From positions 14,384,001 to 14,448,000 of the forward strand of contig OZ076418.1 in the NCBI GenBank assembly GCA_964187785.1: a stretch of 64,000 nucleotides of DNA, given 5' to 3'. Origin of the DNA: Amphiscolops sp. MND2022. Taxonomy: Eukaryota. The position numbers and the translations under genes are program-made. Position 1 is the first letter of the stretch; every line of letters starts with the position of its first letter. Positions 7,742-50,736 of the stretch are shown in pieces. Below the pieces are notes generated by a model. It was not told where the DNA came from, made no database searches, and worked only from the letters and a program-made list of their open reading frames with translations.

Positions 7742-8357
7742 CTGCAGACATTAACGGGATGTATTCATGTTCTTTGTCATGCTGGATGAATTCTTTGATG
7801 ACGTCTAAGTGTTCGGGTAGTGTTTGGGCACAGTCTGTTGTTCATCTTCTTCAGCGTTCATGGCTGTGGCTGGCACAGTTTGTGGTGGTGATGAGGTCGA
7901 AGCGGTGTTCTCTTGCTGTTCTCTTGCTTGTCGTGACCATATTGCTTTGTCCTCGATGCACATGATATTCTCAGCATTTATTGGTGTGGACGTGATGGTG
8001 ACGGGTACTGTCGGGGACGGTGTTGTTCTTTTTAGGATTGGAGACGGCGGTGATGGTCGATTTGTAATCTCTGTGGATTGGGCTTGGGGGTTTGGAACCT
8101 GGATTTTGAAAGAGAATTTATTTGTGTCATAGATGGTTGGTTTGTCCCAAGGGTCACATCTGTAGTCTCTGTCGTATATGTAAATGCGTTCCGTTTTTGA
8201 TTCTGGCAGGGGTCTTTTGAGTGTCGCATAATTATCGGGTGATTCTGTTATCCATTGGGGTAGTGGTGTTGGATCTTCTGGATGTCTGGCGTTGTGTCTA
8301 AGTATCATGCCGACGTTCCAGCAACGTTGCCAGTCTTGAGTTGGTTCTTCATTGCAC

Positions 8358-11324: not shown

Positions 11325-13045
11325 TGTCGCCGGGCTTCCCCTGCGAGATGTCCGGAGTGCAGCATCGATGATCAGTTCAACATGCTCCTTTCTACCGTCT
11401 GAGACTCGAAGATCCGAATCAAATCATCATCAGTGGTACAGACTTCAAAAACATTTAGAGTTACTTAAACTGAGATAATTGTTTTGAATGTTTGTTCTTG
11501 TTGCTATTTTCTTAGCATTCGTTTGTGTTATAATGTTCGTTAATGTTGAATTGGACGCCTTGTTGCCTCCACTGATTTAATTAAAACAGCGGTTTAACCG
11601 TTGGCAAATCGAAAGAAAAAGAAAAAAAAACTTTGATCAAATAAATTAGTCTCTAGTGACAATGTTACTAGTTGACCCAAGCCGAGCCTTTATTTTTACT
11701 CCCACTTTACATCATAAGAGTGTACTGTAGTTTGAAATAGCTTTCAAAATAATAGAGCATTTGTAGCAAGACTATGTAGGAAGCTTTCATGATCAGCATG
11801 ATGAATTACCCATGAAACAGCATACTGTGCTCATACTTCTTTTCATTGACAGTTTATACTGCTTTATGCAGTTCTTACTAGCATAGCAGTTCTGCCGCAT
11901 ATGCGGCTTTTGCTAAAAAACAGCATGGCGACTACATCCGGGTACACGTTTATACTCCTCACCGCATTATGCGGAAATATCTCAAAACAGCATGATGTTT
12001 AATTCATAATTAACATAATGAACAACAGTGGAACAGTACCGAGGAATTATACTGCATTATGCGGTTTCCATAAAACAGTATAAATGCGGATATACTGACG
12101 GAACGTCATAATCCGCATATTGCTTCTACAGTAATTTACTGATGTAGCTGTGCTATATTTAGACCTTCTAGGGATATGACGTTATGAATTATTTTTAATC
12201 CCTGACCCTAGAAACATGACGTTATGATGATTTGTATAAAATTGATTGTCATGCTACTAAAAATACCACCCAATAGAATCATTCGAAGAGAGTCCCTAAG
12301 AAATCATTTTTCCCCACATTCATTCGAAAAAATCTCACGCAGAACACAGTCACTCAATTTCACAAACTACCCACAGTTCTCAAACTTTGCAGTTTTCTTT
12401 CTTTGTAAAGATAACTTCCACGGTTTCATTTCACCAAAATATCTTTGTAATTCAAAGATTTCTACACTCAACACTGTTTTCATCATGGAAAATAAAAGAA
12501 ATAGACGTTCAAGCAGGATAGAATCTCAGTCATCAGACAGAGAAGAGAATGCTTCAGAAACAAGATTCACTCAAGGTAATGCGACTTTAGTTGATGTTTC
12601 TGAAAATGTTAATAACATTTTTGACAGTAACTTAGGTAGTGAACTGACAGAACCTTCACAAATCAGCAATGAAATAGATGTAATATCCCAGAGATTATTT
12701 TTGAACAAAACAGTAACAAGATGACACAAATTGAACAGCAACTGAATAGTAAATTCGAAGAGATACTCAGAGAAATTAGAACAAATAAAGAAAGCAATTT
12801 GGCAAATGATGAAGAGGATGCCGAGAACACCAGGCCAGGTCCATCTAACTCGAGAAATAGAAGTCTCAGGAGTAACCACGCATCAAATACAACACTAGAC
12901 AGAGACAAAAATCAGGATGATCAGTTTTGCCTTTCTGAAATGAGTGAATTGAGACAACCGTACACACCACTCGGAATTGCTAATGAGACACTAGACGAAA
13001 CTATCATTATAAACGAAAACAGACAGGAGAATGCCGATCATCACA
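11325..13045 (+). repeat. E1 5' LTR (1721 bp)
   Basis: Near-identical to 25510-27215; TG...CA termini; TSD on the outer side and PBS on the inner side. Confidence 0.95.
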
Positions 13046-14154
13046 TGGTGACAGGACCTACCAAGAACATCCTGAGACAAAGCTCTACTAACTCTAACAC
13101 AACAAATACAATTGGACCACACGCAACAACTCTTCTCGAACATCCTGAAACATCAGACCCTGTCAGCCAAATTGCATTAGCAATTGAAAAACTGGCACGA
13201 AAAAACCCAGAACCCTCACTCTATCACCCGAAAAACACACTCACCGTTAACGGTAAATTAGAGAAAAATAAAAAGTTTGAATATTTTGAAGATCTTTTTC
13301 ACACCACACTCAAGATGCAACCTCATCTCACTGAAGAGATGAAAATAAACCATTTTCACGCCCATCTCAGAGGACTGGCGTTAAAAACCTTCAAAAACAT
13401 ACAACGCACACCTACCACAACACTTAAAGACATCTTGGTAGTCTTCCGCAGAAGGTATGACAAGCCTGAATCTAGTGCTTCAGCCAAACATAGATTCAAC
13501 AGGCTTATGTTCCAACCCGAAAACCAGAAGCTGCCTGACTTTCTTGAAGATTTACAAGAGAGTGCTGAAAAAGCATTTGGGGAAGCAGCGCCACAGATGA
13601 TCGAAAGTCTCATATACGCAAAAATGCCTCCCCATCTAAAGAAATCAATCAACCAAGCGTACCTTGAGAATGGTACCTACGACCAAATTGTACGACACTT
13701 AGAACGCGGAATGGAATTCAATGGACTCGAAGCAGATGAGCCCTTAGTCAAAACACAAATGACAGCTGTAAAACAGCAAACTAACACACAAAACAATAAA
13801 AGTTCGACACAAAACACAAAACCTAAAACCAAAACTCCCAACACAGTTCCCAACAACACTCTACAAAACAACCAATGTCGTTATTGCAAAGAAGAAGGTC
13901 ACATGGCGAAGGAATGCCCAAAACTTGCAAAACGGCAAAAACTCGATAACGATCCAGACGCACCACGATGCTCCCATTGTAACACTACAGGACATGAAGA
14001 ACCCAACTGTTACTTTGGAGCTAACATGGAAAATTGTCCACCTAAATGGACACTGACGGAAAATCAAAAAAAACTCATTGAAGAGTATAAAAAATCAAAC
14101 AAACCCATCAACCCACGAAACACGAAACCTTCAACATCGAAGGATTTAAACTAA
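12485..14154 (+). CDS. gag: E1 Gag with two CCHC knuckles; ATG inside the LTR; 2-nt insertion near 12707 frameshifts this copy
   Basis: ATG 12485 (MENKRNRR); ORF 12721-14154 has FEDLFHTTLKMQP, CRYCKEEGHMAKEC and CSHCNTTGHEEPNC. The 3' LTR copy of the N-terminus is in one frame. Confidence 0.93.
13046..13056 (+). other. E1 primer-binding site, tRNA-Leu type
   Basis: TGGTGACAGGA directly after the LTR end; absent after the 3' LTR. Confidence 0.88.
14145..14154 (+). promoter_or_regulatory. Gag-pol -1 ribosomal frameshift site T TTA AAC followed by the gag stop
   Basis: X XXY YYZ heptamer in gag frame; the -1 frame is open from 14145 into the pol ORF at 14607 (154 codons checked by hand). Confidence 0.8.
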
Positions 14155-17100
14155 TAAAGCCACGCCTTCAAACAGAAACACCACAAAAACAACACTCTAC
14201 TGATGACTGGCAGCATCAGTTCAGCCCCAAACCAACAAAAATCACAGTCTTCGATCATAAAACCAACAAAAACGACTCTCACACTACAGACACATCAACT
14301 ACAACTCCAGATATTCAAACGGAGGATCTATATGACCTACTCAAGGATGCTCCTGATAACTACATCCTACGACAAATCTTTGAACCTGCAACCGAAACAG
14401 AAACACAAAATCAACACCCTAACACCTCACAACCTCAAGAAACACAAACCGACCACATAAACACACAATCCACATCAACAACTCAAACCGACAAAGACAT
14501 CACCTCAGAATTAACCAAAACTCTCTTTTGTGCATCACCTGGAAAACAACCCCTCCTTGATAATGATGTTTTCAATCATCTAACTACAGATGAAGTCAAT
14601 AACATCATGTATTTGAACCTTTCTACAAACCTTACACTAAAAAAACGTCATATGTACTATTTCCCAATGGATTTCGAAAAACAAACCCTGGATGGACTCA
14701 TAGATACAGGTGCCTTAACAAGCGCGATTTCAGAAGCTGATCTTAATAAAATCAAACTCTTATCAAATGAAGCAATCAAAGACACTGGACCAGCACCTAA
14801 CTTCCAAATTATGGTGGCAAACGGTCAACTTGAACGCCCCATTGGAACCGTCCTCCTCGAATTCGAGGTAGCAGACTTCCAATTTCAAGAGAATTTCATA
14901 GTAATGAAGACACTACCAAACCCACTTATTGGCCTGTGCTTCCTACAAAGACACAACGCTCTTTTCGATATTCGACAAGGAATTATTACCTTCCCATACT
15001 TGTCAATGCAACTGCGTCCCGAACACACAATAAACACCCGAACAGCAACACCCTTGCTGACTGAAACCACTTATACCCTACATACTGGAGAAACTCTTGC
15101 AATCTCCAGCAAAATGCCACACTTGATAGACCACAATGCAACAGGAATTGTTACTCCGTCATCACACATGGAGGAACATGAGAGCATTTTCATTACCTCA
15201 TCATTAAGCACAATCAACAACAACGCAGTGGGTTACCAAGTGATCAATTTCTCGGATATGCCCTACACCCTTCCAGTGGACACACATATGGCAGATTTCC
15301 GAGTCCTCACACCAGAACAAATCAAACACATCAAACCAGTTGATCCATCAACCCTCACCTTCATGATGCATCAACATATAGAGAACACCGACCTTTACCT
15401 CAATCAACTGATGAAAACAAACCAATCATCTAATGAAATAGAAACGTACTGGTTCCCGACACCTGAGCAACCCGGGGATCCAAAAACATACACACCCATA
15501 AAAAAACGAATTTACGACGAACTACTGGAGCTCAAACAACTTGAACAATTGAACCCAAACGACAACGCACAATCTAGAAAGCAATTCCTTGACCATTTCG
15601 ACTGGACCGACACTACCCTAAGCCCATTCGAAAAACAACACATTGAAGACATTCTGGTGCAATACCATGATATCTTTGCCAGACATCGATTTGATATTGG
15701 CATCAATAGAGAATTTAAGGTTAAATTGACTCCGAATGATGATAGGCCTGCCTACAGTCAAAGTCTCCCTACACCAATCAACCTCAAGGACGACATAACT
15801 GTTGAACTAGCCCTACTTCATCGTTATGGTATCATCACAACTTTACCTTTCTCTAAGTACGCAAGCCCTATTTTCGCCCAGAGAAATCCAAATGGACGCC
15901 TTCGTCTCCTGGTAGATCTGCGCAAAATCAACAACCTCATCACGCAAGATTATGTAAACAACAACCACCCAATTAGCACATTGTCAGATGCTGCACAGCA
16001 CATGGCCGGAAAGAAGCTTTTTTGCAAACTCGACTGCTCACAAGCATACCATTGTTTGAAGATGGCCGACTACCAGCCAATACAAATGCTAGCTTTCAAC
16101 TTCGCAAGCCGAACCTTTGCATACAGACGTCTTGCTCAAGGTCTTAGTCGTTCATTATCCGCCTTCTCTTCCTTCATGAGAGAATATCTAGACAAAGCCA
16201 TCAAGGCTGATCAGTGTGCACAATACGTTGATGACATTGGTATAGCTGCGAACGATTCAACACAACTCTGCATCAACATCAAAACAGTCTTTGAATGCAT
16301 CAGAAATGCAGGACATAAACTTACAATGGCTAAATGCCATTTTGGTGTCAAACAAGTCGACTTTTTGGGACGAACAATAACCCCACAAGGAGTCGCACCA
16401 CAAACCGAGAAAGTCAAACAATTTCTTCAAAAACTCAAATTCCCAAAATCCAAAAAAGCCCTTCAAAAGTATATTGGATTCCTTAACTTTTACCAAAACT
16501 ACATCCCTCGTTTATCAGAAAAACTGTCGCCTTTCTTCAAACTACTCAAAGAAACATCACAATTTTGCATACCAAACACCGTTTTGGACACATTTAAAGA
16601 ACTAAACCAACAACTGGAGAAACCATGCAACCTTGCTCTCAAACAACCACTACAGAACAAACAACTCATTCTGATGACAGCGGCCGGTTTCGCCATCATG
16701 ATTGAAGATGATCCCAACCAAAAACTCCAATCTCGAAGGAAAACCTACGCCCCGATTGCGTTTGGCTCAAAAACGTTCAACCCAACACAACTCAAAATGT
16801 CCATTTACGCAAAAGAATTCTTAGCAATTTATTTCGCGTTTTCCGAATTTGGACACCTAATGTGGGGAAGTATCTTCCCTGTTATAGTTTTCACAGACAA
16901 CCGTTCAGTAACACGCTTCTTCCAAACAAAAATAATACCACCACCCCTCTGGAACGCCTGTGACTATGTACTGCAATATAACTTCGTCATAGCACACGTT
17001 GCAGGAGCTATGAACACAGCTGCCGAATTCCTTTCAAGAGCGGAAGTACACCCGACTGAAAAACTCGAAATGAACATCCGAAATGATGTTGCAACCAAAT

Positions 17101-19122
17101 CAATCGAAGTCATTATTCAGTCCACAGGAGTTGCTGAGGAAGAAACTCTCTACATCCTTCCGGACGAATCCCCCACGGAACAGCAATTGTGGGAAGAGAA
17201 AAACACAATACGCTCTATGGCAAGAACGGAAACCCACAATGATCCAGAAAGCGAAGTGTCAGAACTCCAAACTTTCCATAAACCCACAGCGGGCACAATC
17301 AATTACCGCGAAGAACACTTCAAAGACAACACCAAAAGCCGCTTGGAACAAAACAATGACCAAGTACTACACAATCTCCGATATAAACTTGAAGGTGAAC
17401 CCTACGACGAAACAGAGTTTACGCAAGATTATCGCTACAAACACTATTTACAAATTATTACCAGAATTGAAATCAAACAAGATGTCCTAACACGAAGATA
17501 CTGCAATGATACTGGGATGATATCACATTACCAGATACTTTAACCAAAACAACTACTAGATGAATTCCTTCATGCATTTCATGGACATAACGCAAATCAT
17601 CCTGGAATAACAAAGATGATCCAAGAAGCCCGGCAGAAATATTACTATCCCTGCATAGCCAAATACATTCGAACTTGGGTCACAAAATGCCAAATATGCA
17701 TACAAAACAAACGGATCAATAATGACCTCCTCAAAACCGAACTACTAAAATGTTCTGAATGGGACCTAGGTCCGGAAGATATATTGCAGATGGATATCCT
17801 TCCGAACCTTCCGCCAAGTGGAGGTTACAACAATATAATCACAGCAATAGACGTGTTTTCACGCTATCTGTTTGCATATCCAGTTACAAGAATTACTGCC
17901 CCAGCAGTAGCAAAACTCATTATGGATATCTTGTGCAAACACACATATCTACCCACAACAATCATTACAGATATGGGCACTCAATTCAACTCACAGGTTA
18001 CTAAAGAAGTTGCAGCAGTTCTAAACATAGAACTCAAACACGCAACGACAAAACATGCCCAAGCAATTGGACTATTAGAACGTACCCATGCATCGGTTAA
18101 AGCGCATCTTAAAGCAGCCACTGGAGAATTCAGAAACAACTGGCATAAGTTTCTGCCATTGGCAGTCCTGAACCATAATACAACCTACCATGCAACACTT
18201 GGTTGCGAACCTACACGGGTCTTCCATGGAAGAATACCGCACAATAAACTTGATTTCAAACTTGGGTACAATCCAAACCCTAGATTTCAACCCCAAACTG
18301 AGGTAGCAGAAGAGGTACAAAGACGGATTGCATTACTTCATGACCAAACAAAAAAAAACATTAGGCAATCTTACCTCAGATATAAAGCATACTACGACAG
18401 GAAAACAAAAGCAGCACCTCTTACAACAGGGGACTATTGCTTTATCTTGAATCCGAAAGCAGACACACATGCGACCAAAATACCCTTCAGAGATTTCCGC
18501 TGGGTTGGTCCTTATAAAGTCGAAAAAGTCCTACCAAATAACAATTACATTGTCCGTCGATTGGGCACAAACAAAACCCAATTGCTTCATCGTATACGAC
18601 TACGTATATACATTCCACAAGCACCTCTAGCTGACAATTCTGTCAGAGAGTCTGAATGGCAAAAAGAAGATACACTTATTGCTCAAGATGACCTATATGC
18701 CCACACTTGGGACACAAACTTTGGATCGAGCCCATTTGACACTGACTATGAAATTAATGATCAGCAAGAAGATATGGTAGAATACGAACCTGCTTCTCAA
18801 CCTGGAATAAACCGCCCTCCCTCCCCCCGATAATTCTCAAAACAGTGGGGGGACCCGAGCAGAACAACCTGCTGTGACCGACAAAGAACCCCAGATAATT
18901 GATAAAGCCATTACAAGAAATGAAAATCAAGAGCCCATACCAGAAATTCCAAGAAATCCAGAAACTTCCCAAGAAACCCCAACCCAAAATTCACCAAAAA
19001 CTCCCGAAAATAACCCAGAAATTGATGCACAAGAAACACAAAAAACAGTTAACACGAGAGGTGAAAAGTACAACTTACGCCCGAACCCTAACCCTAACTA
19101 CTCAGACTCATACAGATACTAA
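14145..19122 (+). pseudogene. pol: E1 Pol (protease, RT, RNase H, integrase), disrupted
   Basis: LIDTGA; YVDD; RNase H lacks the TDAS aspartate (LMT-AAGF; E2 has LMTDASFGAAGY); stop/frameshift near 17543-17616; integrase HHCC and QMDILP...ITDMGTQF...LLERTH; C-terminus RGEKYNLRPNP in ORF 18874-19122. Confidence 0.95.
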
Positions 19123-19458: not shown

Positions 19459-22400
19459 TCAGGGGCAGAAACGGAACCTCGCTGACAAAGCGCGGAACAG
19501 CCAAAGTAGCAGTAGCCAATTGCAGAGTCTGATCGAAACCTCTTGATGACCCACCGGAAGGCCCAACCGGGATTGGCCCTGGAACAGCAAACTTCGAACT
19601 GGGTAGAGGAGTCTTGGGCGATTTACTAGTAGAAGAAGTGACCCGATGAGTTGGCGAAGAAGAAGTTGAACCAGAAGGTTTAGGATCAACATCCAGAGAA
19701 GTCCATGCCCTTTCTTCATTAGTAACCGTGCAGGTGAAACGGGACTCAAATTTATTCTGTAGTCGTCGTCGGTGAGATGAGCAACTGGAACTAACGTCCC
19801 AAACAGAATAATCGGGATTTTCCAGCAAACTCCTCCCTTTTCCGAGCAAAGAAAAATAGGGGCAACAGTTCTAGGATTGGAAAATAACCCTAAAACGTTG
19901 GGAATGCCGACCAGAGAAGACTGAACACTCCTAACTGCAGAAGTAAAATCACAGTTGTCAGAAGCCAAGTCAGGTAATGCAACGGTGAAAACAGGTGGAA
20001 TGCAAATAGAGCTAGAAATTCCAAGACAACACAATTTGAATACAGAGAATAAATTGGTGCGACATTGGAGCTCATAATAACCGGACATGAAGGTAACCCA
20101 GTCTGTGTCGTACTGTACTTCGCAAGACCTGAACTTCTCAACAAAAGACCGGTACTCACTCAGGATGAGTGGCTTGATGGAACTCGATATCCAGTCCCGC
20201 TGTATGAGGAAATCGCACAATTGGTCTGATTCTTCTTCGTAGTCCTCCTCTCGCCCATGTAATATCACAGCTTCGTCGAAAACAGACATTCCTCGGATAA
20301 GCTTCGACTTGCGGATGCTGTGTTCCAGGAGCAAAGTACATAGACTTTTATAAAAACACAGTGCTTGTTCGACGAAATGGGTTGGCGTCGGTAGGTCACT
20401 CTTATTGACTAAGTCGGCAAAGTCTTTATTGCGAAGAAAATCAGTGACGCTTTTGAAAGGAAGATCTGAAGACAAGTCGATAGATAAGAATCGGTCCCAG
20501 TCAGAGATGTCCCCCAAGAAGGAATCTGGCAAGATAGTCTGGAGCTGACTATACACAAATGTGGCGTAGGAGCTGTAGAGTCGGAAGCCGTCTGAGGCGA
20601 TCCCAGTGACTCCTTTGAAAGCCGATTGGTCTGAAGCAATTTTAGATTAAGAAAAGGAACCAGACATTAGAAGAATGGAAAGAATAGAAAAAGGCTAACA
20701 ATGAAGAAGCACATTCCGTACTAGAAACAACTTGGCGGGATAAGTCTTGTCTTTAAATATCGTCTCATCCAAACTTTTGGGCTGAAACATCAAAGATTGA
20801 CCATTAAAACTATGTTAGAACAACGATATCTGGAATTTCGAAAACGATAATTACCTCTTTCATGTGGTATTTGAAAGCCTTGATCCGGTCAGTGAGACGG
20901 AGATGAGCAACCACATGATGCCAATTCTGGTACAGTTTTCCAAGAAGAATAGCGCACTTGTCATAACTGTATTCGAAGCTACAGATCGCCTAAAAGAACA
21001 AATTCATGCCTGTGAGAACTAATAGCATTGGAATTGAACTTAAGACATGACGCATTATGATGTCTTCCGAGTACAGTATAGAATGCTGAACACCATACAG
21101 CATAGGATATACGGATTAACCGTGAAACCAGCATAATTCAAGAAAAACAGTAGAAAAGAATAAATCACGCTGTTTTTGGAAGAAAACAGTATAAAAGGAA
21201 TAATTACGTCGATCCGGAAAGAAACAGCATAGAAGAAAAGTTCATGCGGTTTCCGGAAAGAAACAGCATAGAAGAAAAGTTCATGCGATTTTCAAAAGAA
21301 ACAGCATAGAAGAAAAGTTCATGCGATTTTCAGAAGAAAACAGCATAGAAGAAAAGTTCATGCGGTTTTCGGAAGAAAACAGCACAAAGAAGCATCCATG
21401 CGGTCTCCGTAAAAGAGTCAGCATAGAAGACAGGTTTATGCGGTTTTGGAAGAAAACAGCATAAAAGAATACTCATGCGGTTTTCGAAAGAAAACTGCAT
21501 AAAGAAGCACCCATGCAGTTCCCGTAATGGAAGGGCATAGAAGATGTGATTATGCGGTTTTCGGAAAAGGTGGCATAAGGAAATACCCACACTGCAAACA
21601 GAATAAAAACATTTTAAAGATAAAATCTATGCAGTTTGCAGAAAACAATGACTATGCGGAGTAGCAGCATAATGAAACGAAGAAACTATGGTCAAGATCT
21701 AACAAAATATGCGGTAATATGCGGTTTTCTGAAGACGTCTTAGGAGTGTTAATTACAGCTAAAAAGGGACATAATATTGGTTAAACAATGCAAATGCTTA
21801 CTTCTCGAAGCTCCTGTAAGTTGTTGAGCCAAGCTGATCCCAAAGCTGTCCGGAGTTTCATCAAAAGAAACTGTAAAACGCTGTGTATTTCATAGCGGTC
21901 CAGGATTTTGATACATGGGCCTGCGAGCATTTTGTATAAATCTTCATAGCCGAAAGTAGCAACGATGCAAATGGGGGTGGATTGGTCCAACTCAGTAGTC
22001 CGTCCATCAAACCCGAGCAGAGAAAACACAGTTCGTGGATTACTTGTAACAGCAAGGAAAGAAGAGATGGCATCGAGGACTTTCGGAGCTGTTTGAAGAC
22101 TGTTGGGAAACTCGGAAAGGCCGAGACTATTGTACACATTCCCAGACCAGAAGGCCAAGTTGACCTGAGCAACTTTAGTCGAGGAAGTGAATTGAAGGGA
22201 ACACAAGCCTCGCTGACCAATAGATGTGGCAGAATATCGTAGTAACTCGTGAAACATGTAGACGAGTATTCCCTGTGAAACATATGAATTAAATGTATGG
22301 TAAATAGATGTCCAACTTAGTCAGATAACGAAAGATACTTACAAAAACACGTTCCTGTCTCCAGTCGTACTGCGGGAATCTAGTGGGCCCCTGATCGTCG

Positions 22401-23597
22401 ACATTCAAATTGGACAAGAGTGAAGTTAATAGGTCCAACTCTCCGCCGGATTGGAGTCCTAACAGGAGAAGCCTCATCTGGAAGCATGCAACTGATGAGG
22501 GATCAAGAATTTCTGTGTCTTTTGGCAACTCCCTCTGTCCTGGCAGCAGGTGACATTCGCCCAAAGTTGGAGTAATTGGAAACGTCTGCTCCGCTTTTTC
22601 TCGAGCTTCGTCTAGAGCAACTCCAGTTATCTCTCGCTCATTTTTGTCATAGAGTGGAAGTACGGCGTTTCTAATCTAATTCGGTGCTCTCGAACCAAGT
22701 GGGCATCGGTACGGTAGTGAGATAAAATTTCGAGTGATCCTTTCGTCTTTAGAGACAATTCTACTTGGCACACTCTACAGCGCCACTTGTGAGGATTCTC
22801 GTTCGGGTCAGCTGGACCTGTGACGAAGAATTTGAACACGGGATGTTTTTTATACATCTGAGCAGAAAGCTGCTTTCGGGGTCTTGGTCTTTTGCTAACC
22901 ACAACTTGTTCATCGGATGTTGTTTGAACCGGGTCAGAAGTTTCGATGTTGTATGAACGCCTGAGAGAGCGTCTTTCCCCGGAGATGTAATTGGAGTCCG
23001 TTCTGCGGCACTACGTCGTTGATTTGTCCGTGTGGATTCACCCCCAGAAGGGCCCGTAGTGGGTTCGGATCTTTCAACAGCGTGCGCAGACATTGATTGC
23101 TCAAGCTTTGTACTGACAAGAGTTTCAAGTCTCTGCTCCAGTGCCTCTAAGTCGGAACTTGTAACAAAATTGCCAAATTGTGTTACTGGAAGCGATTGAG
23201 CATTGGTAGCTGTTTCTCGGCTTTCTTGCTCGGTGGGGGCTGTTACTGCAAGTTGACCCAAGTAACGTGTGGTTGGGGAAGTTCGAGAAAGGGTCCCTTC
23301 CAACATAGGAGTAGTCGCCCGTGAGGAACATTCATCAAGTAGAGTTCTTCTCTCTCCTGCAGGAGCGTTTGGATTGGAACAATCGGGCTGCTCTCCAGTC
23401 ACATCAAGAATGAGATGAAGATTAGAATCGATGGAAGTGGCAAGGAAACTAACAGGTTCTTTGAGACTTGTCATGCTGTGGTCAAACGAGTGTTTGATCC
23501 CGTCTTGGTCAACAGTTACGTTAACAGTTTCACAGAAAGAACGCTCTGGTTCAGGGGTAGATTGATGAAGGGGAGCAACAGACGTCAAAACCGTCAA
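19459..23597 (-). pseudogene. E1 antisense cargo gene: five-exon BED-finger / hAT-transposase-like protein, frameshifted in exon 1 and near the 3' end
   Basis: Exons ~23597-22343, 22272-21802, 20989-20855, 20781-20700 and 20630-~19459. GT..AG introns 22273-22342, 20990-21801, 20782-20854 and 20631-20699 join frames with phases 0,0,0,1. WRCRVC...HYRTDAH finger; FKLCCL motif. Confidence 0.8.
21175..21580. repeat. ~39-bp minisatellite, about 10 degenerate copies, inside cargo intron 2
   Basis: Unit CCGGAAAGAAACAGCATAGAAGAAAAGTTCATGCGGTTT; CCGGAAAG recurs at 21214 and 21253. Confidence 0.9.
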
Positions 23598-24608
23598 TTC
23601 GTTCGAAGATGTTTGTCTCTGGTGAGAGGATTGAGAATCGGTATAGAAGGCGTGAAAGAACTAGAAACAGAAGGCGTGGCAGTTAACGAGAAGGCAAAAA
23701 AGCAAATGGATGACGTCAATAATGGCGTTTTCAGTGTATCTCAAATCTGATTGGTCGAGAGCAAGTACTCAGTTTGGCCATTTCTGAGAGGAATCCATAC
23801 CATATAAGGAAACTGACGGACTCTACGTATTAACACGCAACACACTGCTACAGTGAAAGTGCACTATGCTGTTCTGTATTGGAAACAGCATAATGGTCCA
23901 GCGCTATCGTGAACAACAATGTGTTATAGTATAGAGAAGAAAATGTAACAAGGAAGCATAATGAGATTATGCGGAATTAAAAGTGAAACTGCATAAAGTG
24001 TTTATGCGAAAAAATATCAAAGACAGCATGGTGAAGTAATAATGGAGATATGAGAAATTATGATGCATTATGATGTTTTCTGTAAGCAGTTTATAATGTG
24101 AATCACTACTAATACTGCTGATTTGAATATTACACATTTACAAGTGAAAGAATGAAATTCCACAATTTTGAGAAAGATGATTCATACAACAAAGTGTGAA
24201 ATCTTCACATGATGAATCTGAATGGACTACAACCGTAATGTATTTTGATGATGAGTAATTAAAATTCAGTTACCCTATATGGGGTAGCTACCGGCAATAT
24301 AAGAAAGAAACTCTGAAAATCAACAGTTTTTGATGATCAATTAAAGAAACTCGATGATGCTAGATTTCCATAAATTATTTGATAATTATCCAAAAACCCG
24401 GGAAAAGGGTAACGCGAAAATTTATTGGAGCAATTTTTATAAAACCCATAAACCTACAAAAATCTAGAAAACCTCACCAGTTTGGTCTCAAAGTTTCTGA
24501 AAACAGTTGATCTTCGCCTTACAACTTTCTAATCTTGTAGCAATTCTTGATTCAAAATTGTACAACAATCTGAACCGTTTATACCATTCGATTTGATAAA
24601 ACATAAAA

Positions 24609-25556
24609 ATGAACAGCACACCTGTGGGAAGAAACATTAACACGAGGGACCCAATGTTAATTGACACAGCATTGGACTTGATAAATATCTCCAGTAGCTC
24701 TGAGGAAGAATTTACGGTGGAACGTTTCTCCTTGCCCGAACTAGAAGATAGGTTCAGAGTTGCACCATCATCGATCTCGAACATGCCAACTGCTTTCATG
24801 GGGTCGGCAGCGGCCTCATTATTCGTAACCAATTTAGTTGATGCCAGGTCAACAGGATGTATAGACACAAGAGGAACGTCCATTGAAACTGAGCTGATGG
24901 ATCTACTGAACGACATACCGGATATTTCACCCACAACGTTCATCGATACCTCCGACGAAGAAATGAACCCCTTCCCAGAGGCTAATTTCGCGAATGTACA
25001 AAGGAACGCATATGGTCGCCCTACTCAGAGAGTGTGCCCTATGCCCAGACAGCAACAAGAGACACAACCTCCTAATGCCAACCTACCAACTATACCCAGC
25101 CAAACGAGCGCTTTTACAGCGTATACAGCACCACAGCAGAGAACAACTGACCCGAATCCTCGTCCTACACAGCAAGCACAGTATTTGCCGATGCCCATCC
25201 CGTTTTACCCTAATGCGTGGAACAATGTGGGATATGGGACATTGGGTCAAAATATGCAACCACCACCATCAAGCAACGTTCCCGCCCATAACGGAACCTT
25301 GTTGCAACTGAACCCTCCAGTCATGCCTGAGGTGGCGGGTTATTGCCCAGGTTGCACTAAAACTTATGACCAAATTGCAGTAGAGACATTGACGAACTAC
25401 GTTGCTTGGTCCGAGTATCCTGATGAAACAACCCGCGACAGAAACGTCAGATCAAGGGCTTTTGTGGACGGATTTGGAGCTGCGTTAATCTGCTTCAAAA
25501 ATGCTGGACTGTCGCCGGGCTTCCCCTGCGAGATGTCCGGAGTGCAGCATCGATGA
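24609..25556 (+). CDS. E1 ORF-X: 315-aa Ser/Pro/Gln-rich protein with a C-terminal CxxC domain, ending 47 nt inside the 3' LTR
   Basis: Open ORF; GYCPGCTKTYDQIAVE...RSRAFVDGFGAALICF aligns with E2 ORF 31454-31921. Confidence 0.75.
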   Translation: MNSTPVGRNINTRDPMLIDTALDLINISSSSEEEFTVERFSLPELEDRFRVAPSSISNMPTAFMGSAAASLFVTNLVDARSTGCIDTRGTSIETELMDLLNDIPDISPTTFIDTSDEEMNPFPEANFANVQRNAYGRPTQRVCPMPRQQQETQPPNANLPTIPSQTSAFTAYTAPQQRTTDPNPRPTQQAQYLPMPIPFYPNAWNNVGYGTLGQNMQPPPSSNVPAHNGTLLQLNPPVMPEVAGYCPGCTKTYDQIAVETLTNYVAWSEYPDETTRDRNVRSRAFVDGFGAALICFKNAGLSPGFPCEMSGVQHR

Positions 25557-27215
25557 TCAGTTCAACTTGCTCCTTTCTACCGTCTGAGACTCGAAGATCC
25601 GAATCAAATCGTTATCAGTGGTACAGACTTCAAAAACATTTAAAGTTACTTAAACTGAGATAATTGTTTTGAATGTTTGTTCTTGTTGCTATTTTCTTAG
25701 CATTCGTTTGTGTTATAATGTTCGTTAATGTTGAATTGGACGCCTTGTTGCCTCCACTGATTTAATTAAAACAGCGGTTTAACCGTTGGCAAATCGAAAG
25801 AAAAAGAAAAAAAACTTTGATCAAATAAATTAGTCTCTAGTGACAATGTTACTAGTTGACCCAAGCCGAGCCTTTATTTTTACTCCCACTTTACCTCATA
25901 AGAGTGTACTGTAGTTTAATATAGCTTTCAAAATAATAGAGCATTTGTAGCAAGACTATGTAGGAAGCTTTCATGATCAGCATGATGAATTACCCATGAA
26001 ACAGCATACTGTGCTCATACTTCTTTTCATTGACAGTTTATACTGCTTCATGCAGTTCTTACTAAGCCACATATGCGGCTTTCGCTAAAAAACAGCATGG
26101 CGACTACATCCGTGTACACGTTTATACTCCTCACCGCATTATGCGGAAATATCTCAAAACAGCATGATGTTTAATTCATATTTAACATAATGAACAGCAG
26201 TGGAACAGTACCGATGAATTATACTGCATTATGCGGTTTCCATAAAACAGTATAAATGCGGATATACTGACGGAACGTCACAATCCGCATATTGCTTCTA
26301 TAGTAATTTACTGATGTAGCTGTGCTATATTTAGACCTTCTAGGGATATGACGTTATGAATTATTTTTAATCCCTGACCCTAGAATCATGACGTTATGAT
26401 GATTTGTATAAAATTGATTGTTATGCTACTAAAATTACCACCCAATAGAATCATTCGAAGAGAGTCCCTAAGAAATCATTTTTCCCCACATTCTTTCGAA
26501 AAAATCTCACGCAGAACACAGTCACTCAATTTCACAAACTACCCACAGTTCTCAAACTTTGCAGTTTTCTTTCTTTGTAAAGATAACTTCCACGGTTTCA
26601 TTTCACCAAAATATCTTTGTATTTCAAAGATTTCTACACTCAACACTGTTTTCATCATGGGAAATAAAAGAAATAGACGTTCAAGGAGGATAGAATCTCA
26701 GTCATCAGACAGAGAAGAGAATGCTTCAGAAACAAGCTTCACTCAAGGTAATGCGACTTTAGTTGATGTTTCTGAAAATGTTAATAACATTTTTGACAGG
26801 AACTTAGGTAGTGAACTGACAGAACCTTCACAAATCAGCAATGAAATAGAAGTAATATCCCAGAGATTATTTGAACAAAACAGTAACAAGATGACACAAA
26901 TTGAACAGCAACTGAATAGTAAATTCGAAGAGATACTCAGAGAAATTAGAACAAATAAAGAAAGCAATTTGTCAAATGATGAAGAGGATGCCGAGAACAA
27001 TAGGCCAGGTCCATCTAACTCGAAAAATAGAAGTCTCAGGAGTAACCACGCATCAAATACAACACTAGACAGAGACAAAAATCAGGATGATCAGTTTTGC
27101 CCTTCTGAAATGAGTGAATTGAGACAACCGTACACACCATTCGGAATTGCTAATGAGACACTAGACGAAACTATCATTATAAACGAAAACAGACAGGAGA
27201 ATGCCGATCATCACA
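25510..27215 (+). repeat. E1 3' LTR (1706 bp), carrying an uninterrupted Gag N-terminus copy from ATG 26657
   Basis: Direct repeat of 11325-13045; followed by TSD CTGAG. Confidence 0.95.
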
Positions 27216-29603: not shown

Positions 29604-29805
29604 TTAATACTCGGAATTAGGAAACGGTCTAACTCTGGAGAACTCATTTTGTTCTACATCGTAAACTTCTGTGGTGTTGTACCATTTTCCGCCATTGCAT
29701 GTCCCTATGATATGAATTTTGTCACCGAGTAGACCCACGGTGGGAGATTTACGTGGTGAAGGCAGACTACATATATACTGCCACGTGTCTGTAGATGGGT
29801 CGTAT
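29604..29805 (-). CDS. Kelch-repeat exon, likely the terminal exon of a host Kelch-like gene or a remnant
   Basis: RYDPSTDTWQYICSLPSPRKSPTVGLLGDKIHIIG...TTEVYDVEQNEF; TTTCAG acceptor just upstream of 29805; stop at 29604. Confidence 0.7.
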
Positions 29806-30569
29806 CTGAAACACACCATTAACGGATCCAATTGCCGTCTAGTTTTTTTTATGGAAGAAACAAAGTGTACCCGAGCTGTGATTTCTCGATAAACTTTACC
29901 ACACTTCGTCTTGAAACTCAACTGAGAGAAAACCTCTCTTAGATTTCAACGACCCAATTCCACGATGTTCGAAAGAATCTAGAAATGCGTGAAAAAGTTT
30001 CTCAGGGTATCTATGAACTTGGTGTTCCTAATTGCTATGATTCATGAAAGGGTTCAATTTTCTGTGTGATTCCATATGGCCGAACAAAATTAATATCTGA
30101 GTTTTTAGACAAACTACCACTCTCTATATTGAATTCTAACCAGGAGAGCGAAACCCAGATATATTTCAACGACGCAAAATTCACCAGGAAAATTTGAAAG
30201 GAACAAGGAAAGTGTGAAAAGTACAGTTCCTGACAGAATGAACCTGAGTGGGCCTATTCAAAGTGTTGTGTATCTTCATAGAGTTCGCCTATTTTCCAGG
30301 GATTACATCTTTGAAGCGAAGGTATACAATCCATAGTAGGGGGTGATAACAATTCATGATCTTTAGAAGAAGAAGAAGAAAGTTTATTTCCCCATTACCG
30401 CGGGGTGGACGCCGAATAAGCAGTTCTGCTTTTCTAAGTCGGCGCCCTTTCGGATACTATCTGCCCATAGCAAGCTATGGTACCATATTTGCAGCCAAGT
30501 GGTCAAGCAATGGTGGACTTGAAGCTGTGGTTTCAGAGTGACTTGCTCAAGGTCACAAAGGTCTGACTA

Positions 30570-30749: not shown

Positions 30750-31294
30750 TTTATTCAACTTCTTCTGGAGTAACAAACGTTGAGTCCAACACCATCTCCA
30801 TTCAACTTGCATTCATGATAACAATAGAACGGAAGAATGAGCGTTATTTCCGAATAATGCTGCTGATTTTGAATTCAGTGGAAACACAGCATTGAAACCA
30901 GCAGGCACCCTCCGAGTTCTCGTCCTAAGCCCTTAGGATGATTTCACTGGAAATTTATTATAACCAAACAACTGGCCTTTCCATAGAACTATTTTGAGAA
31001 TCTTCGCACCGAACATCCTTATGTTGTTAAATTGTGTTTTCTGGCCACCAGTCTAATTCGTCTAATTCGTCTAAACTTTCAGAGATTATTAGCAAAGCTG
31101 CAGGGTCAAATGTTAAATCAGGTCTGACCTTCTGTGATTTGGAGATAGTTAGGAGGTCTCAGGCAGTGAACATTGACATACAACTTATGATAAGGTTTGA
31201 ATATGAAACGAATCGCTGCAGCTCACCAAAACTTATCCAGAAATTTTTTAAGAAGCTACTCGAAATGCAGAAACGGATAACTGTAAACAGCACC

Positions 31295-31542
31295 TGTCGT
31301 GAACATTACGGTGGTTTTTGTCACCGTGTTCACTGTTGAGAGTAGTTTTAGCTTTCACGTTGTGCTGAACTTCGGAATAACTTTCCGGTCTCTCATCGGA
31401 TCTCTCCCATCCCCTTCTAGTCTCCTGTCTTGAGCCGGCCATAATAACGTCCTCTAATATATTGGTAGAGTTCCGGCCGCTATTTCCTGTCCTTCTGCGG
31501 TAGTAGTGATCCTTGTACCATCACAGGCGGCAGCCTGCGACA
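31295..31542 (-). repeat. E2 3' LTR (248 bp)
   Basis: Direct repeat of 43629-43876. Confidence 0.97.
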
Positions 31543-31921
31543 CTGCGGGTGTTAGGAAAAGTAAGCTTCCTGCGTTCAAGCCATTTTCATAAGCCTCTCG
31601 TCGTAGGGCGGTAATATAAGCGGGCTCACTGCTAGGTGTCGATCTTTGCATGTACCAGTTCACCTTTTCTGCTTTTATTTGATCTCTCGACTTGCCACAT
31701 ACCATACAGCCTGTGTGCAAATTTTGGCTCACATCCTGGTAAGGCTCGATATTTTGCACATGATAGGACGCATAGAAAGATCCAGAGGTTGACTGCGCAA
31801 GAGGGGTGTCAATGCTCGGTCCCCTTTCATGGTCGGGAGGAGACTGTGGGGACTCCAGAACGGGTAATACAGTTGCACAGAGCTCGACTTTTGATTTTCT
31901 TTGTTTTTTCGATGGAGCCAA
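31454..31921 (-). CDS. E2 ORF-X: 155-aa CxxC protein ending 89 nt inside the 3' LTR
   Basis: TGCMVCGKSRDQIKAE...RREAYENGLNAGSLLF; crosses the LTR boundary at ...CCCGCAG|TGTCGCAGG. Confidence 0.75.
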   Translation of the reverse strand: MAPSKKQRKSKVELCATVLPVLESPQSPPDHERGPSIDTPLAQSTSGSFYASYHVQNIEPYQDVSQNLHTGCMVCGKSRDQIKAEKVNWYMQRSTPSSEPAYITALRREAYENGLNAGSLLFLTPAVSQAAACDGTRITTTAEGQEIAAGTLPIY

Positions 31922-31939
31922 GCATATTTCCTTGTTAAA

Positions 31940-32243
31940 TTACTCGAATCCCAGTTTAAGGGTAGAGGGCGGAACAGGCCATGCACTGCTTGGTCCAGCT
32001 GTCATCTCGTCGTCTAAATCTTCCGTCGTCATCCCGCGTCTCGCTATAGGGATTGGAGCTGCTTTCACCTCTCGTTCTATTCTTTCTATGATCTCTTCTG
32101 TATCCGTGGACGGACCAGTCTGAGTCCCAGGAACTTGAGACTTCATTCTCACTGTCACTTGAGATGTAGCTAACTGAATCCACTGAACTTTCTGAGTCTT
32201 CTTCAAGATCAAAGAGCTTTTTAGTTAGGTTATACCTCTGCAT
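31940..32243 (-). CDS. Acidic Ser-rich ORF(s) upstream of ORF-X, in two overlapping frames
   Basis: LFDLEEDSESSVDS resembles the acidic N-termini of E1 ORF-X (LINISSSSEEE) and the E3 ORF (LFDVSSSSEDEEE). Confidence 0.4.
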
Positions 32244-33293: not shown

Positions 33294-36200
33294 ATGGATT
33301 TCTTTCAAGGAAGCTCACCGCCAAATTTCATCTCTTTTTGTTTAGCAAATCAGCCAGGAGATGATCCTCAAGCCCAAGCCAACAATTCAGCAGATATTCC
33401 CAGCGAGCGTGTCCTGACTACTACTTCTGCAGGAGTGTCCAACGTTATCCGTAGGCCGCAACCATCGCCTCCACCCTTCCCACCAACAAGACCTCCGAGG
33501 TCGCCTGGCAGTCCTGACAGTAACGTTGACGTTACTGCGTATGCGGATGAGAAAGTTCTGTTTCTTGAACAAGCCCAGGAACAGGAAGAGGGACAAGTTG
33601 CCAAGGGTTCTGAAATCAGGGAACAGGAGATTGAAGAGAGTGCCACTGAAGGTCCGTCTGCCGCTGGGATTGAACCCCAAAATTCTACATTGTTTTTCCA
33701 AACTAGCACTCCAACCAAGAACTTGCCCAGTGAGTCTGCAGGGCTGAATTTAACACAACTAGAAGTCGGTCTAACGATTGCTCCCTCCTCTCTGACGGCA
33801 TTGCCAGAGTTGTTGACAACTTGCGGAACTTCTGCCAACGTGTCAGCAGCGTCATTCCTTCAGCATGAGACTGATGAGAGTTCCTCTGTATGTGATGCCC
33901 CCAAACTGCCAACGGGAGTCACGGATGTGATATATTTGGACGACGTGACTGGGACTGAGGAAGCCGGTGACACATCCAGCCAGGCAAGTGGGCCTGCCCT
34001 ATACAATTTCCAGCCAGTAGGAAATGTGACTGAAACTGCAGGAGAATCATCAGTTGATACTTCTATCCATCGTCCCGATATCATGCGTCCGTCAACGTCA
34101 ACGTCTGCAGGGCAAGATTCCAAAGTCAGGGAGCTCTCCGGCCGCAGCCGGGCCATTTTAAAACAGTACTTTGATGAGGATGCTACCACCATCAATTTCC
34201 CTCTCGGCCATAGAACAGTGGCTTTTACTGAGCCACAAGTATATCATCTTTTGAGAGTTCTTACTGATGAGACGTTGAAAATGTCCTATACTGCCTTGGA
34301 ACAGATGGTGATTGGGGCAGTTCGCGGAGCGCCGGTCACTTCCAGTTCCCGAACTGATCATTTCCGAGTCAGGCCAAGAGCCCAAACTCCAGGACCTGGT
34401 CTGCATAGCGATTCTGAAGACAGCTCACGCTCTGAGAATTTTCCTGAATCGGGAACCGATACGTCTGCTGGATCAAGTTCAGGGCAAGAAGACAGAGGGC
34501 TGGACTCCTGCAACGATACTGATAGTTCTGGGGAGATGGCTCTCATCTCACAGGCCTTCAAGGAGCCTTTCAGACCTGCTTCAACTTCCCGCAAAACTAC
34601 ACAAGACGATCCCTCTCAAGCAGGCTTTGAATCTGCGGAGCAGTCAAGCCTTGATGCCACTCTTTCTGAGTTGCGGACTCAAACTTCTCCCGCCCCGCCT
34701 TTGGCTTCAAGTTCGGGTAAAGCGCCCAAAAGGAAGCGACGCAAGCAGACTCGAGGTGTCCCTATGAGAGAGGAGTTCTTCTCTAAGATCGGTTGGACGC
34801 GCTCATTCATTTCCGGACCAGCAGATCCCCTTCACAATCCAAATATGGTGTGGTGCCATATATGCAAAAAGAATATCTCCGTGAAAACTAAGGGGACTTT
34901 AGAAATCTTGCGACACCACAGGACTGAGAAGCACCTCCGACGGGATCAAAGATGGCGCTACGAGCACCTTAAAAGCGTCCACTCCGTGTCTGGAAAAGTG
35001 CAACAACGAGTGAGAGGCCGTAATGGGAAGATCCTTTCAGAGATAGAGTTGGCAAAGGAGATGCGCCACTTCATGCACGTCGAGCTGGTGGACATCGGAG
35101 AACGCTTCCCTTTTTATGATGATTTCATAAAAGGTACGTCAACCACACTTGTCACCCCTGAATCAAGAGCCAAGACGCAGATCCATCTCATCGGGAACTT
35201 CGTACAACAACTTGGAGATATTGGAATGCTCCGCAAATTGTGGTCCCAAATAGGCTCTTTGACCAATTACCAGATCAGCTACTGCGACTTCGATTGGGGC
35301 GAGGAAAGAATTTCGGTAAGTTCTCTTTTGAGTTTGCGTACTGCTTGAGGGAGGCTAAAGCCCTCCACACATTTCGTAATCCTCCTTTTCCTTTCCAGGC
35401 CATCTTCCAGCACATTTTCAATTGTGCAATGAATGATTTAGCGGAGCAGATTGCTACCACACAGCACTTTGCCATCGAGTTTGAGGATGAGGGCGTGAAC
35501 AGACTCAAGTCTGTCAAATTCTGGAAGGGCGACACTCTCTGTCGAATCTACGTGTGCCGGAGTGGGCTTCCTTCCTCTGATCTCACTGGGGAGCTAGGGT
35601 CTCTTTCCCGACTTCTCTCAGTAGTGTCCACCAAGGCCGATATAGTTGCTTGCTCAGGATGTCCAGTGGAGCTGATCCAGACTATCGACCATAATGCTTT
35701 CTTCCCTCGGGCTGTCCAGAGTTGCTTTCGCTTCGAGCACCTGCAGCTCCCGAAGATGATGCACAAGCCAACTTACAGTGTGTTTGGCAGAATAGACTTC
35801 TTCTCTGTTCTGAAATGCCTCACGGTTTCACTTGGAGCAGCTACTGGCGAGGACTGGGTCCTGCAATCCCCTGAGCTAGCACAAGTTAGTATATTAAGTT
35901 CAAACATAAGGCGCAAAGGGTCAGGGGGTAGGTACGGGCAAAAGACAATTTGGGTTCATTTAGGCCATTGATACCTGCAAACTGGACTTGCCGAGTTTAC
36001 CCAACCTCTGCCGGGAACTCGTAAAACATTGGAAGGCAGTCAGGCAGTACTTGACATCACACACTCCACATCAAGGAATGCAGGGCGTCCACAATCAAGT
36101 GCAGAGTTTCGAGTGGTCTCTCATCTGCGACTCTTTCTTCGTCGTCAAGTTGGAACTCTTCCAACGCATAATCAGTGATTGTGAGTATAACGCTACATGT

Positions 36201-37496
36201 CCATATCGATACTTTAAGGCATTATCTGGACGGTCCTTGATCCTTGATTCTTTGGGCTACTAGCATAGTAGGCATATTGTCATGGGTTCACGTGAACATT
36301 TTGTTCCTTTCATGATCTTGTCCGTTGTATTTCCAGATGTTTCCAGTTTCGTTGTCAATCTGCAAGGCCGACGAGATGCGTCATTTTTCCTCTGTGGAGA
36401 AGTCTGTCGTTTCGTCTCCAAGCTATGCGCCAGATGCTACTTGCCAGAAACCATCCCTCTCGAGAATTCGTGGTTCCTTCTCCTTAATTTCGACGTGAGC
36501 GAAGGAAAGTTCATCAGTGAGGAAGATTTCCTTATCCGGCACCGATTGACAAATCGGATAGCTACTGCCAGCAAACAGTGTGCTGATGTTGTTCATCTGA
36601 ACAAAAAATCCGAGAAGGCCGCCATTGATAGGACAGCTGCAGAAACAACTAGCAGTTTTATCAAAGAGGGACTGCACTTCATTCAGTACCTGATCAAGCA
36701 GGTCCTCAACCAAGCCGGCCTGAGTTCCGAGGTGATCAAGTGGTTGGCCGCCTTTGACCCTTTTGTCCTTTTCAAGAGGCCGACTGAGGTCGGACTCCGG
36801 CATTTTGAGGTGCTACACTCGACCTTTCAGCTTCGTTCTTGGGTCTCCAGTGAGAATGAGAACATCTGTCGAGATGAGTATTTGGCTTTGTTGGATCACC
36901 TGCGAGTCAATTATCCTCCAGATTTTGATTTCAAGGAAAATTCCAGTGACCTCATAGACTTCCTGATGCGGCTCGAGTTTTTTCAAACTCATGAGCTCAT
37001 TTTCCATCTCTTCAAGCTGTGCTGCTTGTGTTTGACAGGTCAAAGTCCCCAATATCCTCCAGTATCTTTTGGGAGTGTTGACACTTCTGGACACCGACGC
37101 CGTTTTGCTGACCTGGTAGTGCCCTGTCAGAGTTACCTTTCTTGCGTGCCTGATTCCATTTCGTATTGTTGCTCTGATGCCAATTTAGAAAAGTTCTCAG
37201 CTCTCAGTTCTTCCTTCGAGCGTTCCGCTTTCTCCCCTGATTACGATCCATGGACCTTTGTGGATGAGTTCGGTAGGTCCAAGATCTACAAGAGCCTTCT
37301 TGCCTCCTATAAGGCCGTCACTGCTGTTTCCCCCACTCGGGCTGTTCGTCTGGGGAAAGGAACTGCCTCTTCCGTGCCGGATGACTCTGCCGTAAAGTTT
37401 CCTTCCCGGACCCAACGGAAAAGAATGGGCAGCAGTAGTTCCACTATCTCGTCCGCCTCCAAGAAACTTGTCCATTGTTATATTTTCCTCCTCTAG
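33294..37496 (+). CDS. E2 antisense cargo gene: four exons, open ~1294-aa BED-finger / hAT-transposase-like protein
   Basis: Exons 33294-35315, 35399-35884, 35964-36180 and 36337-37496 (3885 nt = 1295 codons). Introns GTAAGT..CAG, GTTAGT..TAG and GTGAGT..CAG, phases 0,0,1; the third removes the in-frame TAG at 36261. VWCHIC...HHRTEKH finger; FKLCCL; DYDPW. Confidence 0.82.
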
Positions 37497-50001: not shown

Positions 50002-50736
50002 TCATGGGACGTACAGCTTTCCCGGGTTGATGGAAATGGAACGGCAGGTACTGGGGGTGCTCATTATTGTTGCTCTTTCCACTGAAATTGTTTTCTTTGC
50101 ATCCAAGTCATTCAGCGGGCTCATTGTCTGATGAACTGTTCTCCTTAATGGTCCAGGAGGCGTGACGAAATATGAGCTGGCATCTTCGCGAGCAACTTCT
50201 TCCAGATAATCCGCAATGACAACGCTTGTCATTGACTTGGGACTGGGGGCACAGTGTCCTTCTACAACGAACACTCCCGAGTTCGATCTGCTGTCGTCTT
50301 CATCTGGGCTCTCAGGGCTTTCTTTCATTGTGCTGTCAATAGATTTTGTCGATTTGATTGCAAGTTCCCCTGTTTCCAGTGATTCAAGTGTGGAGTTCAA
50401 ACGCATTCTTTTACAGTCTGCTTCTAGGGAATCTGCGGAAATATCGAAATAATCCTCCTCGTCTGCGACGGCTTCAGTGGGGGACAAAAAAGAGGTGTTC
50501 AGCACTACTCTGTTATTGGATATTGACTCTCTGGGAAGGGGAGTCGACTCTCTTTCTTGCATTTCTTCTTCGTCTTCGCTTGATGACGAGACGTCGAATA
50601 ATTCGTAAATGTCTAGGAGTTTGCTCATTTTCTGTTGGGAAACTCTTTTCTGCAGCTGCTGTAGGTATTTGATTGTTCCACAATGAGTTTTAGGATTATT
50701 TAGGATCAAGAAGAATATTGGGATAAATCCCTCCAT
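50002..50736 (-). CDS. E3 3' sense ORF (acidic, Ser-rich), positional analogue of ORF-X
   Basis: 244-aa ORF, LFDVSSSSEDEEE; stops 10 nt before the putative LTR start; no CxxC visible. Confidence 0.5.
   Translation of the reverse strand: MEGFIPIFFLILNNPKTHCGTIKYLQQLQKRVSQQKMSKLLDIYELFDVSSSSEDEEEMQERESTPLPRESISNNRVVLNTSFLSPTEAVADEEDYFDISADSLEADCKRMRLNSTLESLETGELAIKSTKSIDSTMKESPESPDEDDSRSNSGVFVVEGHCAPSPKSMTSVVIADYLEEVAREDASSYFVTPPGPLRRTVHQTMSPLNDLDAKKTISVERATIMSTPSTCRSISINPGKLYVP

Follow-up and report, generated by a model that had tools for sequence, protein, structure and literature searches.

Does an open reading frame that leaves the internal region of a retrotransposon and ends inside its own 3' LTR belong to a gene and, if so, what would the protein do for the element? 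The question is raised by a 64,000-nt stretch of DNA (the window) from the 1.07 Gb genome of Amphiscolops sp. MND2022. An earlier note on the window reported an open 315-aa sense frame, ORF-X, that crosses the internal/LTR boundary of an element named E1 and stops 47 nt into the LTR. The coordinates bear this out: the 3' LTR of E1 begins at 25510, just past ...AAAAATGCTGGAC, the crossing takes place within a Leu-Ser codon pair, and 47 nt of ORF-X, including the stop, lie within the LTR.

Element E1 and its place in the window

E1 is a complete Ty3/gypsy LTR retrotransposon, with paired TG...CA LTRs (33 mismatches over 1706 aligned bases), a flanking 5-bp target duplication, a PBS that we take to be of the tRNA-Leu type, a CCHC gag and a PR-RT-RH-INT pol, both recognised by Pfam (Table 1). 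These are the features that it has in common with Ty3/gypsy elements (Metaviridae). The E1 lineage differs from them by two added genes placed head-to-head past pol, the last of which enters the LTR, by a gag frame that begins in the LTR and by the lack of a polypurine tract. ORF-X is one of these two accessory genes; the other is a spliced antisense gene located between pol and ORF-X. The layout is thus that of an unusual, four-gene gypsy element without polypurine tract. The two-knuckle gag presumably recalls the Mag clade. The gag frame (12721-13056; 4110-5801 in element L147) starts within the LTR and continues through the LTR end and the PBS, the last A of the LTR and the TG of the PBS together making an ATG in this frame. 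The left end of the window carries further broken retroelement fragments (2470-2937 on the + strand and 5908-8365 on the - strand), and a short kelch-repeat-like frame seen by eye at 29604-29945 (- strand) is possibly a host gene exon.

Table 1. Features of E1 and of the related elements E2 and E3 in the window (Str., strand; aa, position in ORF-X)
Feature	Position	Str.	Remarks
E1 5' LTR, TG...CA	11325..13045	+	start of the gag frame encoded in its 3' part
gag	12721..14154	+	zf-CCHC, E=1.9e-5; weak DUF1759 match; E1 copy frameshifted upstream
PBS	13046..13056	+	directly adjoins the 5' LTR
pol, PR-RT-RH-INT	14154..19122	+	E1 copy with one in-frame stop and a late frameshift
E1 antisense accessory gene	19459..23660	-	three exons in relatives; basic NLS-like stretch; BED-like C2H2 finger (motif only); E1 copy broken
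39-bp tandem array, antisense intron 2	21165..21506	.	AAACAGCA and TATGCGG motifs, also in LTR and intergenic region
Conserved non-coding motifs upstream of the ORF-X ATG	24397..24509	+	210-100 nt ahead of the ATG; candidate internal promoter
ORF-X, 315 aa	24609..25556	+	open; purifying selection
Phospho-SIM-like motif, aa 24-34	24678..24710	+	hydrophobic core, then Ser and acidic run
Conserved domain, aa ~232-308	25302..25532	+	CxxC (C246, C249), two helices, third Cys (C307) encoded within the LTR
E1 3' LTR	25510..27215	+	without polypurine tract ahead
E2 ORF-X homologue	31454..32243	-	window copy frameshifted; ends 89 nt inside the E2 3' LTR (31295-31542)
E2 antisense accessory gene	33294..37496	+	
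E3-type positional counterpart of ORF-X	50002..50628	-	SIM-like start, Cys-rich LTR tail, without CxxC domain; frameshifted near its end here

Relatives of ORF-X, selection and the LTR boundary

A second element of the window, E2, carries a frame whose C-terminus was proposed in the earlier note to align with that of ORF-X. The two align without gaps, with 17 identities over 63 positions (BLASTP E=3e-5). Their Smith-Waterman score of 64 is equalled by 2 of 5000 shuffles in one control and by none of 5000 in another, and it is the best obtained against 314 other frames of the window, the next being 39. Furthermore, when 1977 frames are searched with a profile built from E1-like proteins only, devoid of any E2-like sequence, the E2 frame comes out at E=5.6e-8 (next match, 0.76), and hhalign relates the E1 and E2 ORF-X families with a probability of 88 (E=3.3e-6). 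The same geometry had also been claimed for both frames; this stands for the end of the E2 frame, which lies inside the LTR, but the E2 copy of the window is itself frameshifted. Among the best-matching copies, the frame is open over its whole length in 23 of 30 for E2, 19 of 30 for E1 and 16 of 20 for F56, a more distant family. The openness of ORF-X next to a broken E1 pol, put forward as a sign of function, is true on both counts but carries little weight: gag-pol has only about 3-4 lesions across ~6.4 kb, and simple arithmetic therefore leaves a 0.95-kb frame open by chance about half the time.

The 248-bp LTRs of E2 (31295-31542 and 43629-43876) both lack about 1.7 kb that relatives have. 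Only one of 48 relatives shares the deletion junction, and the missing stretch begins at a GT just past the ORF-X stop. If the short LTRs arose by splicing, this GT would fit as the donor, yet the AG acceptor is found in one of seven relatives. E2 sits within one of two tandem repeats of ~3.1 kb, seen on its two sides over 30984-31294 and 43874-49674, that adjoin the E3-type ORF and are probably the tandem LTRs of a third element.

The E3-type counterpart of ORF-X occupies the same position and has the same codon phase at the LTR boundary. The ORF-X domain profile finds no CxxC domain in E3-type ORFs, and their N-termini alone align, weakly, with the E1 family (probability 45, E=2e-4). All these frames are widespread in the host genome, with at least 150 matches each for E1-, E2- and E3-type queries and 118 for F56. 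ORF-X had been described as a conserved CxxC frame, and a profile search with this domain indeed matched 310 representatives of clusters defined at 50% identity, 150 of which underlie the conservation figures given below. No named relative was found among 30 clusters checked, nor any relative in JGI metagenome or IMG/VR contigs searched with two short patterns. Two distant representatives have no match in the host genome under strict thresholds (142 and 150 candidates scored), which hints that they come from other hosts.

Selection was estimated on distinct copies whose frame is open throughout, which numbered 37 (52 loci), 29 (34 loci) and 43 (52 loci); some of these loci had been chosen because they were open. 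The tree-wide omega of the three families is 0.21, 0.13 and 0.15, respectively, and that of the E3-type counterpart is 0.17 (14 copies); the comparison of dN/dS between copies advocated in the earlier note thus reveals purifying selection. Pairwise values, drawn from non-independent pairs with a codon bootstrap, are 0.16 (0.13-0.19), 0.16 (0.13-0.20) and 0.10 (0.08-0.13). The more the copies diverge, the lower is omega: it is 0.31-0.47 for near-identical copies and declines to 0.07-0.11, a trend that selection during transposition, followed by decay of the copies, would produce. Omega reaches 0.04-0.07 in the conserved domain and 0.02-0.12 in the disordered part at dS 0.5-1.5. Over five elements, whose dS is saturated, it amounts to 0.034 for the integrase, 0.040 for antisense exon 3 and 0.065 for ORF-X.

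Could the frame nevertheless reflect constraint on something else, be it an overlapping frame or signals in the RNA or DNA? Nucleotide-level constraint at the LTR junction is real. However, four other reading frames over ORF-X have an omega of 1.17-2.54, against 0.10-0.16 in frame; the mirror antisense frame, at 0.18-0.25, contains 7-14 stops per copy; and the domain is conserved gap-free at ~20% identity. The absence of a protein gene is therefore hardly credible, and ORF-X is almost certainly a real gene. Its description as an undescribed third gene of the family holds in so far as the gene is selected and no description of it was found in the open-access literature covered or in Pfam, PDB or BFVD; it has to be amended in that there are two accessory genes and the CxxC domain is missing from a third clade.

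Of 20 elements, 18 allowed the LTR boundary to be located. Each of these 18 has the boundary at one and the same Leu/Val-Ser codon phase, carries 44-104 nt of the ORF inside the LTR and lacks a polypurine tract, the longest purine run in the 60 nt that precede the 3' LTR being 5-7 nt. The codons on either side of the boundary (positions 25495-25525) are frozen at the nucleotide level in these 18 elements, which points to a cis signal inside ORF-X. LTR pairs are up to 99.9% identical, and several elements without polypurine tract exceed 99.5%. A non-canonical plus-strand primer is implied in these elements. The ORF-X protein itself might assist plus-strand priming or integration where the tract is missing, and the short purine runs (at most 7 nt in 18/18 elements), the frozen codons and the fall of dS in the domain and tail would all suit such a cofactor. 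Nevertheless, a cis signal alone accounts for the nucleotide constraint, nothing ties the protein to reverse transcription and its N-terminal motif suggests host nuclear partners, so that this role appears improbable.

The ORF-X protein, its expression and its antisense neighbour

According to AlphaFold models, ORF-X is mostly disordered apart from a CxxC...C helical hairpin of ~75 aa. The full-length model has low confidence outside aa 91-101 and 241-298, and that of aa 228-314 consists of a CxxC knuckle and two helices (mean pLDDT 76.5). Both cysteines of the CxxC are conserved in 93% of the 150 representatives, and the third Cys in 92% of 106. No Pfam family was found for ORF-X (best E 0.013 among 16 domain sequences), sequence searches of PDB reach E 0.42 at best, Foldseek with the domain returns nothing at E<=0.001 in PDB or BFVD, and the best VIA-align hits (Z 5.9) are generic helical hairpins. 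This does not prove a new fold, since so small a helical hairpin leaves such searches little power.

A sense ORF located between pol and the 3' LTR is usually read as env-like or as a spreading protein, and ORF-X has the corresponding strand and position (PMC5408684, PMC7264820). Its acidic N-terminus and mostly disordered model argue against such a function, as does the lack of any transmembrane segment (best 19-aa Kyte-Doolittle value of 1.27, and at most 1.61 in 20 long representatives). An env-like protein is thus very unlikely.

The small domain is reminiscent of export factors. The start of helix 2 is basic (mean of 3.2 K/R per 11 residues), and an invariant Cys together with a conserved Arg gives a pattern that resembles CERV and Rev-like factors, a resemblance that is no sign of homology; Rev entries appear in Foldseek only at E 3.3-7.8. 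As reported for CERV of the Caenorhabditis elegans element Cer1, an invariant Cys and an Arg are required for gRNA export (PMC10309623). ORF-X might likewise use its Cys knuckle and basic helix to bind the genomic RNA of the element, thereby aiding nuclear export or stability. On the other hand, the E3 type lacks the CxxC domain and keeps the SIM-like start, and CERV, as described, has a G-like domain and is translated from a spliced mRNA that begins with exons in the gag frame, whereas ORF-X has its own ATG. A Rev/CERV-like factor is therefore unlikely, without being far-fetched.

The only feature common to all four ORF-X families lies at the other end of the protein. Among 123 copies, 119 have a SIM-like motif within their N-terminal 45 aa, and the motif is kept in the E3 type although the CxxC domain is missing there. 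Of 20 long representatives, 12 contain a stricter form (0.16 would be expected), which is absent from all of 87 windows of gag and antisense proteins; three of the eight misses look N-terminally truncated, and the patterns were picked after the alignments had been viewed. Within its disordered region, the arm shows the phospho-SIM pattern of a V/I/L core and then Ser and acidic residues, and this sequence pattern predicts SUMO binding; the motif also fits the definition given for CK2-regulated SUMO-interacting motifs (PMC12751080). The host genome has a SUMO gene, whose product shares 83% and 80% identity with named proteins from two acoels, which points to an acoel host. No basic NLS is obvious in the E1 protein (20 K+R, 33 D+E).

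Several data bear on how ORF-X could be expressed. The earlier note had guessed at an internal promoter upstream of the gene; short motifs that recur between diverged families 100-220 nt upstream of the ATG support it and make this region a candidate promoter. One of them, chosen by eye, is found in 16 of 18 E1, F56 and E2 elements (0.8 expected) and in neither of two E3 elements; we take it to be E2F-site-like. The E3-type elements L131 and L132 carry, where the E1 and E2 types have this motif, two CCAAT boxes ~65 nt apart. Both kinds of site would fit expression in dividing cells. In 17 of 19 elements, position -3 relative to the ATG is an A, and no splice acceptor is found at a fixed place within 450 nt upstream of ORF-X. 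In addition, ATGCGG is repeated in the LTR, the antisense intron and the spacer of 7/7 E1/F56-type elements, as compared to 0-1 times per 2 kb of pol; these repeats are missing from the 4/4 E2/E3-type elements examined.

The antisense gene goes along with ORF-X: among 20 stretches picked by ORF-X, it is found in all 20, and an integrase lies within 10 kb in 18. It has no Pfam or PDB match. A hAT ancestry finds no support in PDB or Pfam (zf-BED at E=0.2 in one case of 11), and Pfam does not detect TRP28 among 24 antisense protein sequences. Pairwise identities of ORF-X track those of the antisense gene (Spearman 0.89) more closely than those of the integrase (0.69; 91 pairs), a co-variation for which plain linkage may also account. 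In elements L116, L117, L120, L122 and L124, the codon-tree length is 3.0 for the integrase and about 17 for ORF-X and the antisense exon. These lengths suggest that the subfamilies exchange pol, or that it becomes homogenised among them, as their accessory cassettes diverge.

A proposed role for the accessory genes

The following model can be drawn for ORF-X, a selected protein-coding gene with a fixed place, flanked by the antisense gene and the 3' LTR. The spacer that separates the two head-to-head genes would harbour an internal promoter, from which a short subgenomic mRNA ending in the LTR would be made. In the protein, the disordered acidic arm with its phospho-SIM is predicted to dock on SUMOylated host chromatin or silencing factors, and the Cys3 helical hairpin to bind metal, to oligomerise, or to contact nucleic acid or the antisense BED-like protein. 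The short motifs that recur in LTR, spacer and intron would provide the targeting, in which case the two genes would together form a family-specific cassette for activation or anti-silencing. ORF-X would thus be a nuclear SUMO-engaging regulator that keeps its parent element transcribed, possibly guided to its targets by the antisense BED-like protein; we give this reading a probability of about 0.4. It is favoured by the selection that extends to the disordered part, the SIM-like start, the host SUMO gene and the lack of a hydrophobic segment, as well as by the A at -3, the conserved upstream motifs, the ATGCGG repeats and the co-variation of the two genes. It is weakened by the lack of an obvious basic NLS in the E1 protein, by the absence of ATGCGG from the E2 and E3 types, and by the fact that CERV, which among animal gypsy elements offers the nearest precedent for a mechanism, works on RNA export.

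Motifs as short as SIMs are frequent, and they attract repressors no less often than they counteract them; the direction in which ORF-X acts is therefore a guess. The same anatomy could serve self-restraint, the SUMO-binding arm recruiting host repressors to the element's own LTR, or ORF-X titrating the antisense protein, and thereby limiting copy number. SUMO-SIM contacts often build repressive complexes, which speaks for this possibility, but an omega of ~0.1 in high-copy, recently active families is easier to understand for a gene that aids the spread of its own copy. Self-restraint thus seems unlikely, and slightly more so than the export of genomic RNA.

The role of a SUMO-engaging regulator can be set against known systems. 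Added ORFs between pol and the 3' LTR have been described in plants (PMC11963269, PMC7264820), in rotifers (PMC5408684) and in Cer1 (PMC10309623). Plant Retand/Tat elements share with the E1 lineage a long region between pol and the 3' LTR, an antisense ORF suspected of a DNA-binding regulatory role and tandem arrays (PMC11963269, PMC7264820); the E1 lineage differs by its animal host, the lack of a Pfam match to TRP28, the introns of the antisense gene and the added sense gene that overlaps the LTR. The ORF3s of bdelloid LTR elements are likewise in sense orientation and not env, but are reported either as enzymes that can be recognised as such (GDSL, DEDDy) or as TM/coiled-coil proteins, which differ from family to family and are typically spliced (PMC5408684). 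CERV is, like ORF-X, a non-env accessory protein of an animal gypsy element, with an invariant Cys and Arg and flexible linkers (PMC10309623). Compared by its published description, it differs by its size (517 aa), its spliced and partly gag-frame coding sequence and its G-like domain (PMC10309623), ORF-X being a single-exon gene of 250-370 aa with a SIM-like motif. VANC of the Arabidopsis VANDAL elements also combines an accessory gene with short motifs repeated in the non-coding parts of the element (PMC6719617), an arrangement whose counterpart here is found in 7/7 E1/F56-type and 0/4 E2/E3-type elements. Unlike ORF-X, VANC belongs to plant DNA transposons; no homology between them was found, and anti-silencing by ORF-X is a prediction. 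The transposon-encoded anti-silencers named in the part of a review that we cite are from plants (PMC6719617).

In complex retroviruses, the last ORF also extends across the internal/LTR boundary, as for HIV nef, the bel genes of foamy viruses and MMTV sag, and nef carries a true polypurine tract inside its frame. These 3' accessory genes differ from ORF-X in that no sequence or fold match between them was found in PDB or BFVD. A bolder proposal, which we regard as rather doubtful though worth stating, is that an animal Ty3/gypsy lineage independently evolved a cassette of this complex-retrovirus kind. The antisense BED-finger protein would read the motifs repeated in the LTR, the SUMO-binding protein with its new Cys3 domain would disarm host silencing at the LTR, and ORF-X would have overgrown the polypurine tract, leading to priming without one.

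No description of ORF-X or of its layout turned up in the open-access literature covered, to which supplements, repeat databases and subscription papers could add unnamed annotation. In the part cited here, an acoel genome paper reports only the LTR fraction, which is about half the genome of this relative (PMC9911081). ORF-X thus apparently represents a new, undescribed family of accessory genes, which is under selection and has an unmatched domain. Accessory ORFs of LTR retrotransposons were already known, few of them with a function. This family comprises hundreds of copies, is strongly selected and fixed in its geometry, and offers a candidate promoter as well as a short motif that lends itself to tests. 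It makes it possible to test by what means animal retrotransposons resist silencing that depends on SUMO, and how plus-strand priming proceeds in active elements without a polypurine tract. If the complex-retrovirus-like cassette were real, it could help to explain why LTR elements dominate acoel genomes and would provide the first sequence-targeted anti-silencer from an animal retrotransposon.
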